The translations under genes were made by a program, and so were the position numbers. A stretch of 5,051 bases of DNA from a virus (taxonomy: Duplodnaviria; Heunggongvirae; Uroviricota; Caudoviricetes). The stretch is from IMG/VR virus record IMGVR_UViG_2690316028_000009. One strand, written 5' to 3'. Below the pieces are notes generated by a model that was not told where the DNA came from, searched no databases, and saw only the letters and a program-made list of their open reading frames with translations. Shown here one piece after another: positions 1-5,051 of this stretch. Numbering within the stretch: the first letter of the stretch is position 1; each line of letters opens with the position of its first letter.

Positions 1-126
1 GAGGGATTTCAAACCCGCCATCAATACCACCCCAGGCAGCGTCAGCATTAAGCCCGTTATCGGGCACATGACAGTCGTATTGGCTGCAAGCCCAACACGC
101 TGCATTGCATAATCGAAAAATGACAT
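1..126 (-). CDS. Possible 5' end of a gene running off the left edge (42 codons seen, hydrophobic N-terminus MSFFDYAMQRVGLAANTTVMCPITGLMLTLPGVVLMAGLKSL); product unknown
   Basis: ATG at 126-124 with an AAAGG Shine-Dalgarno-like motif 9 nt upstream; open to the window edge. The opposite strand also carries an open frame entering from the edge and stopping near 110, so strand assignment is uncertain. Confidence 0.2.
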   Translation of the reverse strand, partial: MSFFDYAMQRVGLAANTTVMCPITGLMLTLPGVVLMAGLKSL

Positions 127-509
127 GGTGGTTAACCTTTCAATGAATGGGGCTTATTATACCATGCATAGCTCAATTATTAATCAATCATCATCGCATG
201 CTTGATGCCATTTAACTTTGTCGCAGGCACTCAGTGAATGTCTGCTGTAATGCCTGCTCAGCCAAGTTGAAGCACACCGTGTTCTTTTGAATCAGAGAAT
301 GCAACAAACCCAGTGTATTCGGGGATAGTGTTCCGTCATCAGCATCAAATGCTGAAATGGTTGCGTGAAGAATCAAAAATGCTCCAAATCCCGCGCCGCT
401 GCTGCCCCTCGATGGTCAGAATCGTCAAGGAGGACCCGTTAAAAGGTAAGCAGAAAATCTGTGGTTAGAAGTGAAGGCTTTGACAACGTTCTAAATTTTA
501 TGACAGAAA

Positions 510-544
510 TAAAAAAGCATTACCTTTCAAGATAATGCTTTTTC
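510..544 (-). terminator. Bidirectional intrinsic terminator downstream of the gns gene
   Basis: Perfect 7-bp inverted repeat AGCATTA (516-522) / TAATGCT (533-539) with a 10-nt loop, flanked by an A-run (510-515) and a T-run (540-544), so it reads as hairpin plus U-tract on either strand. Confidence 0.6.
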
Positions 545-567
545 ACTCGAACTGAGTCTTATAACAA

Positions 568-741
568 TTAGATTAATGTGATTTTAATATCATAGCTTTC
601 AAGCCCAGTCATTTTTTCACGAGCATTAAACTGGATATCGGAAACTTCTTTTCCTGTCTTTTTTTTGAGTTCAATAATTTTTTTTGTGATGAATTCAGAA
701 ATATCCGCTTCAGTTTTTCTTTTTAAATCTTCGACGTTCAT
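568..741 (-). CDS. gnsB: GnsA/GnsB-family small protein, 57 aa (MNVEDLKRKTEADISEFITKKIIELKKKTGKEVSDIQFNAREKMTGLESYDIKITLI)
   Basis: My own translation; absent from the ORF track, presumably below its length cutoff. GAGAGG Shine-Dalgarno 6 nt upstream of the ATG. The sequence closely matches E. coli GnsA/GnsB as I recall it (shared core NTGKEVSEI.F.AREKMTGLESYD.KI). The choice of gnsB over gnsA is contextual (next to a CspI-like gene) and not secure. Confidence 0.8.
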   Translation of the reverse strand: MNVEDLKRKTEADISEFITKKIIELKKKTGKEVSDIQFNAREKMTGLESYDIKITLI

Positions 742-945
742 TGTTTACCTCTCTTGATCTCTAACGTATCAACGCCAGGCATGTTACATTCCCCGTAGAG
801 CACTTGTATAAGCGCTGATATGTTTAAAAGATAGAATAGAAAGACTCAATTATCAATAGTTTGCAGTACAATCTTCATGCAAAAGAGCTCGCGACCACAC
901 AAACCACTGTACTAAAATCCGGGTCGGTCACGAAACAACCAGATC

Positions 946-1176
946 TCATTTCAAAAGCTTCGAGGCTGCCTCGAGGATCTCTTCTGAACTGACATCACGA
1001 TCAGAGGCTACATAAACTATTTTATGGTCTCCTGTCAGAGATGGAAATCCCGCTGACATCACGGGTAGGTGTGCTTTTTCCCCATTGGGAAACTCACGCA
1101 TTATCGTAGTAATACCTTTCATTACGGTTACAACAACTGCTGGTTCTGCATTAAAAAAAACGATGACTTTTTTCAT
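946..1176 (-). CDS. Hypothetical 76-aa protein between csp and gns; positional counterpart of the small cold-shock-associated genes (ymcE / ynfN) in E. coli csp-gns clusters
   Basis: ORF with ATG start and protein-like, non-repetitive composition; weak Shine-Dalgarno. I do not recognise the family from sequence, so the call rests on gene order only. Confidence 0.5.
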   Translation of the reverse strand: MKKVIVFFNAEPAVVVTVMKGITTIMREFPNGEKAHLPVMSAGFPSLTGDHKIVYVASDRDVSSEEILEAASKLLK

Positions 1177-1221
1177 AATTTTACCGTGATGTCTCTTACA
1201 GAGATTGTCGGTTCAGCATAC

Positions 1222-1243
1222 AAAAAAGGCTCCATAAGGAGCC
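1222..1243 (-). terminator. Intrinsic terminator on the minus strand
   Basis: Minus-strand reading GGCTCC-TTAT-GGAGCC followed by TTTTTT (plus-strand 1228-1243 stem, 1222-1227 A-run). It lies about 200 nt downstream of the csp stop. Confidence 0.65.
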
Positions 1244-1448
1244 TGAAATTTATTTTCTGAATTCTAACGAAGACTGACCAGAACGAATGTACAGTGCAAT
1301 ATTATCAAATGTAATCATTGTTGATTTGCAAAAAATACATTTTGCTCCGAAAGGATTTTTTTCAGTAACATCAAAGTTTGACGTTCGGTACTGAGATCCG
1401 TGGCAACACGGACATCTGAAGTGAATATTATTAGTAATAACAGTTACC

Positions 1449-1661
1449 TTATACAGCCACGACATTAACTGCCGTGGGGCCTTTAGGTCCCTGTTCAACA
1501 CTAAATTCAACTTCCTGATTCTCATTCAACGTCTTGAAATCATTACTCTGGATAGCAGAGAAGTGAACAAACACATCTTTACTACCATCTTTTGGAGTGA
1601 TAAAACCAAAACCTTTTTCAGGATTAAACCATTTAACTAAACCAGTCATTTTATTAGACAT
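1449..1661 (-). CDS. cspI: Cold shock protein, CspA family (CspI/CspG-like), 70 aa
   Basis: Translation [53 protein letters not shown]... carries the RNP1 (KGFGFI) and RNP2 (VFVHF) motifs. Start taken at the third Met of the track ORF (1661), which gives the canonical MSNKMTG N-terminus and an AAGGTAATG Shine-Dalgarno context like E. coli cspA. The paralog label is from memory of E. coli Csp sequences. Confidence 0.9.
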
Positions 1662-1900
1662 AAACATTACCTTTATTGAGTAAGCCCTTGGGCAGAATGG
1701 TCCGAAAAAAAATTATCAGAGAGAAAAGCTAACAAGGAAATCTCAACAGGAACAAGGAATAAAATTATTACAGCGACTGCTTCAGATAAATTCGTTACAA
1801 ACCAGACATTCATTAACGCATGATTAACCAGACATAGCAAGGTTTAGTTTTGTAAGTAAATCTCAGTGGGTTTTGATCTTAAAAATTAATTTAAATAGCT
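1662..1900 (-). promoter_or_regulatory. csp promoter and long 5' UTR (cold-shock thermosensor-type leader)
   Basis: Candidate -35 TTGCTA (plus coordinates 1835-1840) and -10 GTTAAT (1812-1817) at 17-bp spacing, preceded by a very AT-rich UP-like tract (about 1841-1900); this predicts a leader of roughly 145 nt. CspA-family mRNAs are known to have long regulatory 5' UTRs. Exact boundaries not determinable from sequence alone. Confidence 0.4.
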
Positions 1901-2233
1901 TAAATCGAAAATTATGTCATGCTGCGTAAGACCTTTATCTATCACCCTAAGTTGTCAGGGATTTTGACTCAAGGAAGAGTCGTATTTCCTTCATAGTAAA
2001 AATTCACAAATTTATCCACGAAAACCGTCAACATCTTAATTTATAGAGCTATTATTTTTCCTCTACGGTTCATTGTTAGTATTTTTACGGACTCATAAAT
2101 CCGCTCACATGTCATTCCTGCTCGGTAGTTTTCATCAGCGCGTTCAGCATGGTATCGAGCTTCTTCTGCCAGGCTTCCTGGCATGTCTACGAGCATTGTG
2201 GTGTCATGGCGGATGGAAAGTTATGTTGATTCG

Positions 2234-2437
2234 TTAGTTATCGAGCTGTAGAACGCTATGCTCTAGCGACTCGGAATAGGCAATCAGCCCGGTGTACTCA
2301 GGGATAACCTCGCCATCATCCGCTTCGAACTCAGGGATTGTTCCGGTAGTGATGGTATATTGTGGCTGGCCATCTTCTTTTGCGAAGGCAGCCAGGTCTT
2401 CAATCTGCTTAGCTGTAAGAACTACTGTAATGCTCAT
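2234..2437 (-). CDS. Hypothetical small acidic protein, 67 aa (13 Asp+Glu against 2 Lys)
   Basis: ORF with ATG start and protein-like composition; GAGGA lies immediately before the ATG with no spacer. No family recognised. Confidence 0.5.
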   Translation of the reverse strand: MSITVVLTAKQIEDLAAFAKEDGQPQYTITTGTIPEFEADDGEVIPEYTGLIAYSESLEHSVLQLDN

Positions 2438-2572
2438 TCCTCAGTTGTTAAAAAGCCCCGCTATTGCGAGGCTTGATTGATTATGGCTAACGACTACATC
2501 GTAACGGTTATAAAAGAAGCTATTAGCCAACATGTGGTGTATGGTTGTTAACCGCCCACCAGGACAATCAAC

Positions 2573-2746
2573 ATGTCGATACTCAAAGATATCAAGATGC
2601 GTACTTTACGCCATGTGAAAAGTACTTGTCCTCATTGCTCCCGCCAGTCAAAGCACAGTCTGTCGAGAATAAAAAACAATATAACGTTAATTTGCCCCTT
2701 CTGTGGAAACATCTATCTTCCATCGGAAAGCAAACCAATAAAGTAA
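2573..2746 (+). CDS. Hypothetical Cys4 zinc-ribbon protein, 57 aa (MSILKDIKMRTLRHVKSTCPHCSRQSKHSLSRIKNNITLICPFCGNIYLPSESKPIK)
   Basis: My own translation in a frame not listed by the ORF track. ATG with AGGA 8 nt upstream; CPHC-x18-CPFC motif typical of zinc ribbons. Preferred over the overlapping track ORF 2545..2754, which needs a TTG start and has no motif. Confidence 0.5.
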   Translation: MSILKDIKMRTLRHVKSTCPHCSRQSKHSLSRIKNNITLICPFCGNIYLPSESKPIK

Positions 2747-2821
2747 CTGATTGACTACCAAATAAAACTCATACTCTCAGAATGTGGCAAAGCAGACATA
2801 ACCTTTTATTGTTGTTCTCAT

Positions 2822-3052
2822 TTAAGAGAATGTAACACCCAGAGTGGAGAGGTTTTTTTTCTTCTCCACAATACGGCGATCAAGTTCAGCCACTGCATGC
2901 GGGCGTATGGCATCAAGAAAGGCGTTATCCTGATAGGTAGACTGGATTGTCACACCAAGTCCGGCACCACTTTCCAGTATGCTTTTCTGAAGTTGTAGTT
3001 CTTTTATATCGTTATTGAGGTAATACGCTTCACTTAGGTTTTCTGCGTTCAT
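2822..3052 (-). CDS. Hypothetical 76-aa protein
   Basis: AT-rich ORF with ATG start and weak Shine-Dalgarno; its start directly abuts the breakpoint where the GC-rich integrase remnant begins. No family recognised. Confidence 0.4.
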   Translation of the reverse strand: MNAENLSEAYYLNNDIKELQLQKSILESGAGLGVTIQSTYQDNAFLDAIRPHAVAELDRRIVEKKKNLSTLGVTFS

Positions 3053-3078
3053 CTTCTACCCGTAAAGTAGAATTAAAC

Positions 3079-3411
3079 AGCGAGGCGCTGGCCGCGCTGC
3101 AGGCGCAGAAACAATTCACTTTCATGAAAAGCGAGTTTATTTTCAGCGACCCTAAAACGGGAGAGCCCTGGGCGAACGCCGACGCAATACGAAAAAAAGC
3201 ATGGGTGCCAACCCTCAAAAAAGCTGGCGTTCGATACCGTAACCCGTACCAGACCCGCCACACATTCGCCACCAGACACATTAGCCAGGGCGTAAACCTT
3301 TTCTGGCTTGCCGGGCAGATGGGGCATAAAGGGCCGGAAATGCTGTTCCGCAATTACGGTAAATACCAGGCTGAATACGACGGGAAAACCGCCATTTCAG
3401 CAGCTCTGTAG
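3079..3411 (+). pseudogene. Tyrosine recombinase (phage integrase family) C-terminal remnant; N-terminal roughly two-thirds missing
   Basis: The reading frame is open from about 3019, but only from about 3079 does it look integrase-like: ...YQTRHTFATRHISQGVNLFWLAGQMGHKGPEMLFRNYGKY..., i.e. the R-H-x-x-R / LxGH / Tyr catalytic region. No arm-binding or core-binding domain is encoded upstream. The segment is visibly GC-richer than the flanking DNA. The two minus-strand track ORFs overlapping it look like GC-driven artefacts. Confidence 0.7.
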
Positions 3412-3529
3412 CGTCGTGAGTATTTCAAAATGTTGGACGGAATCAGGACGTTAGAGGGACCACGATATGCACGTAAAATGCACTTGAGGCCTTTCAAAAA
3501 AGACAAAACATTAATATTCAATAGGTTAA

Positions 3530-3570
3530 GCATTATTCGGACACGGGTTCAACTCCCGCCAGCTCCACCA
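3530..3570 (+). other. ssrA: Partial copy of the 3' end of tmRNA (ssrA), T-arm/acceptor 3' strand ending CCA; att-site core repeat, not a functional tmRNA gene
   Basis: GGACACGGGTTCAACTCCCGCCAGCTCCACCA matches the E. coli tmRNA 3' terminus (as I recall it) with one mismatch. Neither the tmRNA 5' end (GGGGCTGATTCTGG...) nor the body is present anywhere in the window. Confidence 0.8.
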
Positions 3571-3606
3571 AATATTGATGTACTGAAGTTCAGTAAAGTC
3601 TACTAA

Positions 3607-3638
3607 GCCCGCACAGCACAAGCTCTGCGGGCTTTTTT
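3607..3638 (+). terminator. Intrinsic terminator after the ssrA 3' fragment
   Basis: GCCCGCA (3607-3613) / TGCGGGC (3626-3632) stem followed by TTTTTT (3633-3638). Confidence 0.65.
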
Positions 3639-3693
3639 ACGTCTATTGTAGTCTAGTGAGAATTGCTGAGAACTACGAGTTATGGCACCCTGA

Positions 3694-3733
3694 ATGGGAC
3701 CCACGAAGATGGGTCCTAAAATCGAGGGTCCCA
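3694..3733 (+). promoter_or_regulatory. Three phased 10-bp direct repeats immediately upstream of the integrase start
   Basis: ATGGGACCCA (3694-3703), ATGGGTCCTA (3709-3718) and GAGGGTCCCA (3724-3733) at exact 15-bp spacing; the last overlaps the Shine-Dalgarno region. Confidence 0.3.
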
Positions 3734-3736
3734 AAC

Positions 3737-4966
3737 ATGGCCAAAATCGCTAAGAAGCTCACTGACACTGAAATCAAAAGCACCAAACCTGCCGAAAAAG
3801 AGGTTAACCTTTTTGACGGCGATGGTTTGCTGTTGCGAATCGCTCCCCTGGCGAAGGGAGGGAAGAAAAATTGGTATTTCAGATATGCAGTGCCTGTGAC
3901 CAAAAAGCGAACTAAGGTGAGCTTAGGAACCTATCCTCACCTTACACTTGCGAAGGCACGAGCTTTACGTGATGAATACTTGTCGTTGCTTACAAATGGT
4001 ATAGACCCCCAAGTTCATAACAACCAAAAAGCCAATGCACTGAAAGATGCCACGGAACATACATTTCAAGCAGTAGCCAAGAAGTGGCTTGATGAGAAAG
4101 TCAAAACGTCAGGCATCTCCCAAGATCATGCTAACGACATCTGGCGAAGCCTAGAGAGAAATATCTTTTCCACATTGGGTGATACCCCAATTAAGGAGAT
4201 TCGCCCTAAAATGCTTAAACAGCATTTAGAACCCATAGAAAAACGAGGTGTCCTTGAAACACTTCGCCGCATCATATCCCGCCTGAATGAAATTTTCCGC
4301 TATGCAGCAACAGAAGAACTCATAGAATTCAACCCGGCAGACAACCTGGGGCAACGGTTCAGCAAGCCAAAAAAACAGAATATGCCAGCATTACCCCCTT
4401 CCGAACTCCCTCGCTTCTTGGTTGCTCTAAACAATGCTTCTATCCGTTTGGAAACAAGGCTACTGATTGAGTGGCAACTTCTCACATGGGTTCGCCCAGG
4501 TGAAGCTGTTCGCACAAGATGGTCAGATATTGATATTGAAACTGGCATGTGGAACATCCCGGCGGAGTTTATGAAAATGAAGAAGCCTCACAAAGTTCCA
4601 CTGAGCAAAGAAGCTTTGCGAGTTTTGGATTTAATGAAAGTCATCAGCGGGCATAGAGAGTGGGTGTTCCCCAGTATCAAAGCTCCACTCAATCACATGC
4701 ATGAACAAACAGCTAATGCGGCCATAATCCGTATGGGTTTCGGAGGTGAGCTTGTAGCTCACGGTATGCGATCCATTGCTAGAACGGCTGCTGAGGAGTC
4801 TGGCAAGTTTAGGACTGATGTCTTAGAAGCCGCCCTTGCCCACTCGAAGAAAGATGAAATAATTGCAGCCTACAATCGTGCAGAGTATCTCACTGAACGG
4901 GTGGTTCTCATGCAATGGTGGAGTGACTATGTTTCGTCTCAAAAATGCAAAGTTATTGCCGCATAA
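3737..4966 (+). CDS. intA: Site-specific tyrosine integrase, P4 family (ssrA-associated island integrase), 409 aa
   Basis: N-terminus MAKIAKKLTDTEIKSTKPAEKEVNLFDGDGLLLRIAP...WYFRY is typical of the P4-type arm-binding domain; C-terminus carries HGMRSIARTAA ... AAYNRAEY (catalytic His, Arg and Tyr). GAGGG sits 9 nt upstream of the ATG at 3737. The track ORF begins at a GTG at 3656, which I consider an over-extension. The gene symbol is by analogy to the CP4-57 ssrA-linked integrase and is not sequence-verified. Confidence 0.9.
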   Translation: MAKIAKKLTDTEIKSTKPAEKEVNLFDGDGLLLRIAPLAKGGKKNWYFRYAVPVTKKRTKVSLGTYPHLTLAKARALRDEYLSLLTNGIDPQVHNNQKANALKDATEHTFQAVAKKWLDEKVKTSGISQDHANDIWRSLERNIFSTLGDTPIKEIRPKMLKQHLEPIEKRGVLETLRRIISRLNEIFRYAATEELIEFNPADNLGQRFSKPKKQNMPALPPSELPRFLVALNNASIRLETRLLIEWQLLTWVRPGEAVRTRWSDIDIETGMWNIPAEFMKMKKPHKVPLSKEALRVLDLMKVISGHREWVFPSIKAPLNHMHEQTANAAIIRMGFGGELVAHGMRSIARTAAEESGKFRTDVLEAALAHSKKDEIIAAYNRAEYLTERVVLMQWWSDYVSSQKCKVIAA

Positions 4967-5051
4967 CTCTCCCATGATGGATTAACTATCTTGATTTAGG
5001 GAAGGTGCGAACAAGTTCCTGATATGAGATCATCATATTCATCCGGAGCGC

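Follow-up and report, generated by a model that had tools for sequence, protein, structure and literature searches.

In this work, we have analysed a window of 5051 bp, which is the entire contig LLYK01000038.1 of the E. coli draft assembly GCA_001484375.1. A fragment of a phage integrase gene lies in it between the late-region genes of a lambdoid prophage, at its left, and a displaced piece of the ssrA gene followed by an intact integrase of another family, at its right. The features that concern us are these:

2822–3052, minus strand: phage gene of 76 aa (phrog_5415, E=4e-34), 100% identical to EC2641 L003 8765–8995
3049–3058, minus strand: what the deletion left of an Rz-like spanin (DUF2514) gene, namely its last 10 nt with the stop
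3057–3058, no strand: deletion junction, with a 2-bp 'TA' common to both parents in a four-way alignment
3058–3411, plus strand: integrase remnant, codons 274–390 and the stop of a 390-aa lambdoid-phage tyrosine integrase
3124–3411, plus strand: the sole callable ORF in this remnant, 95 aa, deposited in GenBank as KUH12949.1, 'hypothetical protein'
3412–3535, plus strand: P arm of attR, phage-derived, 37.9% GC, collinear with the attR of E. coli MS 115-1 and the attP of Escherichia phage LMessi
3536–3570, plus strand: displaced 3' fragment of ssrA (tmRNA), the att core, 35 nt with CCA at its end; from 3536 onward the window aligns with thousands of E. coli ssrA genes
3571–3640, plus strand: host sequence from downstream of ssrA, with the terminator hairpin at 3605–3634 (inverted repeat I1, also picked up as a terminator-like site); 99.2% identity to the ssrA 3' flank of many E. 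coli
3737–4966, plus strand: intact P4/CP4-57-type integrase of 409 aa, belonging to the next island (PF13356, PF22022 and PF00589), 99.5% identical to that of E. coli C1

The genes at the left of the window are typical accessory genes of the late region of lambdoid prophages, and comprise a GnsA/GnsB toxin homolog, a CspG-like cold-shock gene, YmcF, YnfU and three small genes of phage-only PHROG families. When the window was compared by megablast with 5426 complete E. coli genomes, positions 58–3061 matched the EC2641 prophage with 99.9% identity. The 76-aa gene is the last intact gene of this late-region parent. In EC2641 the upstream DUF2514/Rz-like gene (L003 8992–9507, equivalent to window 3049 onward) ends on the ATG of the 76-aa gene, stop and start codons overlapping, and the sequence continues past the point of the junction into the DUF2514 spanin, lysozyme and holin genes. 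The original prediction, made from the letters of the window, placed the start of the 76-aa gene exactly at a breakpoint, which was nearly right: the gene starts at 3052, and its start codon is 5 nt from the junction. The complete module of the 76-aa gene was found only in EC2641 among the 5426 complete genomes, and there it sits in a prophage remnant beside the nap operon (napB), not at ssrA. The EC2641 element is itself a truncated remnant at this non-ssrA locus: at L003 10448–11333, the next gene after the holin gene is a pseudogene of a DNA methyltransferase, and it overlaps the end of napB.

Other observations were made in this left part. A second Rz-like spanin (DUF2514; phrog_312, phrog_14926) is represented by a C-terminal fragment on the minus strand at 2041–2196, and the EC2641 equivalent of this fragment is annotated as a pseudogene. 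The module formed by a 67-aa gene, YnfU and the 76-aa gene (2234–3052) therefore has a dead spanin 3' end on one side and, on the other, a spanin that in EC2641 is intact, an arrangement that points to an older mosaic join or a segmental insertion in the lysis region. On the minus strand, positions 1390–1806 match the Rfam cspA thermoregulator over its full length (141 bits, gathering score 78); this element leads the CspG-like coding sequence (1449–1667, minus strand), and YmcF (1250–1438) comes next, with an STnc220-like terminator region after it that scores 43 bits, below the gathering score. The first 57 positions of the window have no match in EC2641 and a weak one (90.6%) in the Escherichia phage record Phi06_2987 S, and are probably another mosaic boundary or a repeat that broke the contig.

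To the right of these genes, the translation of 3058–3408, in the frame of the original prediction, is free of stops over 117 aa and matches the Pfam profile PF00589 (Phage_integrase) at positions 67–167 of 172, with 28.8 bits (cut-off 27.1; E=1.3e-6), while the shorter translation of 3079–3408 reaches 25.3 bits, just below that cut-off. By tblastn, residues 274–390 of the E. coli MS 115-1 integrase, annotated as a 'site-specific integrase', match 3058–3408 with 99.1% amino acid identity (E=1e-79), and a single change, L377Q, distinguishes the stub from the MS 115-1 protein. That only the catalytic C-terminal third of an integrase is present had been proposed beforehand, and the homology and profile searches bear this out: a recombinase catalytic domain is truncated at residue 274, and what is left is the C-terminal 30% of the protein. 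Residues 1–273 have no counterpart in the window by tblastn, except a weak paralogy to the downstream intA gene, so a frameshifted but otherwise complete integrase does not lie upstream in the window. The event would be recent, since the stub is nearly free of mutations.

The intact homolog has an Arm-DNA-bind_2 domain (PF12167, residues 12–80) and a SAM-like core-binding domain (residues 95–180), and the stub has neither. We placed the catalytic residues through a phmmer alignment to the Tn1549 Int structures 6en0, 6emy and 6emz, in which engineered substitutions at the catalytic site flag Arg-I and the Tyr. The catalytic set of the intact homolog is Arg-I R235, Lys-beta K269, Y337 at the His-I position, Arg-II R340, His-III H363 and the nucleophile Y373. 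The stub, which begins at T274, retains Y337, R340, H363 and Y373, while R235 and K269 lie upstream of the break and are absent, leaving the catalytic set incomplete. With these two residues and both DNA-binding domains gone, the stub is not expected to act as a recombinase, and would be a non-functional integrase pseudogene.

The stub and its intact neighbour come from different families, as had been predicted. The 3737–4966 integrase, of the P4 type (CP4-57 IntA-like; NCBIfam NF007246, PRK09692, 444.6 bits with a cut-off of 434), shares with the family of the stub the PF00589 superfamily and action at the 3' end of ssrA. However, it is only 25% identical to the intact homolog of the stub, in a partial alignment (E=4e-5), and the N-terminal architectures differ: PF13356 (Arm-DNA-bind_3) with PF22022 (Phage_int_M) in the neighbour, and PF12167 with the SAM-like domain in the homolog, in which neither PF13356 nor PF22022 gave a match. 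The possibility that the stub is a fragment or duplicate of the 3737–4966 gene was rejected on these two grounds.

What follows the stub reads as an attachment site. In elements integrated at tRNA or tmRNA genes, a displaced fragment of the target gene marks the end of the element (Islander, PMC4383910). The ssrA fragment at 3536–3570 has the phage P arm at its left and the host ssrA terminator at its right, as an Islander-type attR does. In an alignment of the attR of the window with the attL and attR of MS 115-1 and the attP of LMessi, position 3543 carries the phage-type A, the base in intact ssrA being G; this position is on the P side of the core, so that the crossover took place 3' of 3543. 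Tandem islands at tRNA and tmRNA genes are bounded by such displaced target fragments (PMC4383910), and CP4-57 resides at ssrA (PMC10107115). As in the Islander-type tandem arrays, the same 35-nt ssrA fragment is here followed by the integrase of the next island; the upstream element has, in addition, lost the N-terminus of its own integrase. On its sequence, then, the region appears to be an attR, the end of a lambdoid prophage that integrated at ssrA and stands in tandem with a P4-like island.

Several candidate features in this part of the window were set aside. No complete tmRNA gene was detected in the window by ARAGORN. The Rfam tmRNA match at 3369–3570 is a sub-threshold global alignment (30 bits, gathering score 47), of which only 3536–3570 is true ssrA, and a partial Rfam match to the IsrM sRNA (46 bits, gathering score 376) covers only the ssrA terminator hairpin. 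A scan of 2400–3800 for promoters and terminators gave counts at the level of shuffled sequence, and a hairpin at 3090–3078 on the minus strand was given no weight. Further right, the homology of the window to E94, related strains and the metagenome contig L010 stops at 4999, which is 33 nt past the intA stop. A module of the P4-like island has its boundary here, and the cargo of the island varies among strains.

The base composition of the stub had drawn attention to it, and its GC content is indeed above that of its left neighbours: 53.0% in 3059–3411 as against 39.9% in 1–3056, with 43.3% in the 76-aa gene. Of all 353-bp stretches in the window, the richest in GC starts at 3077–3080 and stands about 2.1 SD above the window mean, and the maximum-likelihood change point falls after 3077. 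The intact integrase gene has 52% GC along its full length. The high GC of the stub is thus a property of the whole gene and no separate anomaly, and the step arises where two phage modules of different composition are joined. A sharp compositional breakpoint near 3070 had been predicted, and the step is real. The homology breaks at 3057/3058, not within 3070–3079, and about 20 bp to the left of the compositional breakpoint.

The join could be placed to the base pair. The megablast homology on the left ends at 3061, passing through a 1-nt gap, and the ungapped identity to EC2641 stops at 3058, while the homology on the right begins at 3057. To the right of the junction, 3057–3576 matches MS 115-1 at 99.6% (99.6–99.8% across comparisons), the ssrA-linked integrase region of E94 follows to 4999 with about 94% identity (94.3%), and the int gene and attP of phage LMessi share 95.5% nucleotide identity with the window. 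MS 115-1, E94 and LMessi, which carry the intact homolog, are thus collinear with the window to the right of 3057. With a slash at the junction, the four-way alignment reads ...CTTCTA/ACCCTG in EC2641, ...CCGGTA/CCCGTAAAG in MS 115-1, and ...CTTCTACCCGTAAAG in the window. The right parent is cut in int codon 274 (at about int nt 819) and the left parent 10 nt before the end of the spanin gene.

The junction is rare. No genome spans it among the 5426 complete E. coli genomes, and it is absent from the GTDB species representatives. Moreover, the window is a short draft contig of 5051 bp flanked by repeated prophage DNA, a setting in which two sequences might be joined by the assembly itself. However, four other assemblies share the junction, three of them with 100% identity, namely an independent Logan run assembly, whose match covers 1684–3573 of the window, and two ENA metagenome assemblies. 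The fourth, the metagenome contig OODL01008812.1, is 99.93% identical (2 SNPs) and spans 2089–4999, after which it diverges. An identical junction in four other assemblies excludes, for practical purposes, an assembly chimera.

The loss of the 5' part of the integrase had been attributed to an insertion or a deletion that left a mosaic element end, and a mosaic end is what we find, with both parents cut inside a gene and collinearity on each side. As to the mechanism, no IS ends, target duplications or repeats were found at the junction. Both parental genes being cut mid-gene, and the junction being free of IS ends and repeats, the signature is that of an illegitimate deletion and not that of the insertion of an element. 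It could still be argued that a foreign segment entered an otherwise complete integrase gene whose 5' part lies further left, beyond the contig, given that the window ends 3 kb to the left of the junction. We consider this very unlikely. Besides the bare junction, the left parent is cut inside the spanin gene, 10 nt before the end of its stop, and not at the terminus of an element, and its homology in EC2641 runs for >8 kb into terminase and portal genes. A true interruption of the same int family by an IS, moreover, looks different: in the E. coli draft genomes L011–L013, int nt 778 directly adjoins an IS that carries an rve transposase.

These draft genomes came from the 90%-identity cluster of the 95-aa ORF, which contains other C-terminal integrase fragments, of 115–116 aa and 96 aa, on long contigs of E. 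coli and Klebsiella; the fragments in this cluster are ascertained by length. In the Klebsiella prophage L015, the homology begins at int nt 863. A recombination hotspot at codon ~274 was considered and ruled out, the breakpoints being different (nt 778, nt 863 and nt ~819 in the window), and the similar lengths of the fragment ORFs follow from the available start codons (V277 GTG, M296 ATG). The truncations in the window, in L011–L013 and in L015 are independent decay events.

We propose that a temperate lambdoid phage of the LMessi / MS 115-1 type, whose integrase belonged to the Arm-DNA-bind_2 family, would have entered E. coli ssrA at its 3' end, where a P4-like island was already resident downstream. 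The ssrA-integrating lambdoid integrases of MS 115-1 (WP_016240236.1) and LMessi (XNS37527.1), of the Arm-DNA-bind_2 family, formerly DUF3596, have the same P arm and the same ssrA core, and in MS 115-1 also the same place beside a P4-type intA. An intact ssrA at the far end of the element is seen only in the relative MS 115-1, where the undamaged layout is smpB, ssrA, a 41-kb lambdoid prophage with int as its last gene, the ssrA fragment and intA. Unlike these integrase loci, the window is without residues 1–273 and without all the upstream early genes. In both MS 115-1 and LMessi the lysis genes lie upstream of int on the opposite strand, and the interval from the spanin to the equivalent position in int, about 12.0 kb in LMessi and about 13.0 kb in MS 115-1, holds, between the lysis cassette and int, the Q, replication, immunity and early-left genes. 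A single illegitimate deletion of some 12–13 kb within such a prophage, at the 2-bp microhomology, would have joined the 3' end of the Rz-like spanin gene to int codon 274. It would have removed the spanin, endolysin and holin genes, the antiterminator Q, the replication genes, the cro/cI immunity region, the early-left genes, with the excisionase if there was one, and int codons 1–273. The remnant prophage would then be locked in the chromosome, unless Int and Xis were supplied in trans. We give a probability of roughly 0.8 to an internal deletion in one prophage at ssrA as the explanation of the stub; the origin of both junction sides in one prophage, and with it the size of the deletion, are what we infer from the sequence comparison.

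The gene order and orientation in the window, with the late genes on the minus strand at the left and int on the plus strand at the right, are those expected from a single internal deletion of the lambdoid map. They also bear on whether the two sides came from separate elements, two prophages or a prophage elsewhere and one at ssrA, through illegitimate recombination between different sites that produced a large chromosomal deletion, an inversion or a translocation. There are reasons to take this seriously: the left module is found at 100% identity only in EC2641, in the remnant beside napB, none of the sampled ssrA prophages with the integrase of the stub carries that module, and the 5-kb contig is too short to link the left part to attL. 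The module and the integrase occur together in one prophage in none of the 5426 complete genomes, and the module is present in 0 of the 99 complete genomes that carry the integrase, so that the undeleted parent is unsampled. However, lambdoid late regions are highly mosaic, which makes the absence of the module from relatives weak evidence, and a deletion between distant prophages would cost many core genes. Together with the simple match to the lambdoid map, this leaves a rearrangement between two prophages unlikely, if the least so of the alternatives to a deletion within a single prophage, which is more parsimonious.

Does the stub have a role? E. coli K-12 cryptic prophages carry defective integrase pseudogenes, such as intQ of Qin, and intG. 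The stub resembles these in being a truncated integrase at the edge of a decayed lambdoid prophage, with csp, gns and ynfU-type accessory genes alongside, but its integrase is of another lineage, and neither its attachment site nor its breakpoint is theirs. It is a case of ordinary prophage decay, of a known kind, with no new biology. One may imagine that the 95-aa ORF (3124–3411) or a longer product is expressed and functional, for instance by poisoning the Int tetramers of incoming related phages that target ssrA, or that the deletion was a selected 'domestication' that fixed the csp/gns/ymcF/ynfU accessory genes while disarming the prophage. We hold either to be most improbable; if it were true, the recurring C-terminal stubs of this integrase family in E. 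coli and Klebsiella would reflect selection and not ascertainment.

For annotation, KUH12949.1, now a 'hypothetical protein', is better marked as an integrase pseudogene, and the region is best annotated as the putative attR of a defective prophage that shares the ssrA site, in tandem, with a P4-like island. For the biology of these prophages, the locus would offer an example, resolved to the base pair, of how a single microhomology-mediated deletion inactivates a prophage: one such event may do away with lysis, regulation, replication and integration at a single stroke, and spare the accessory genes.
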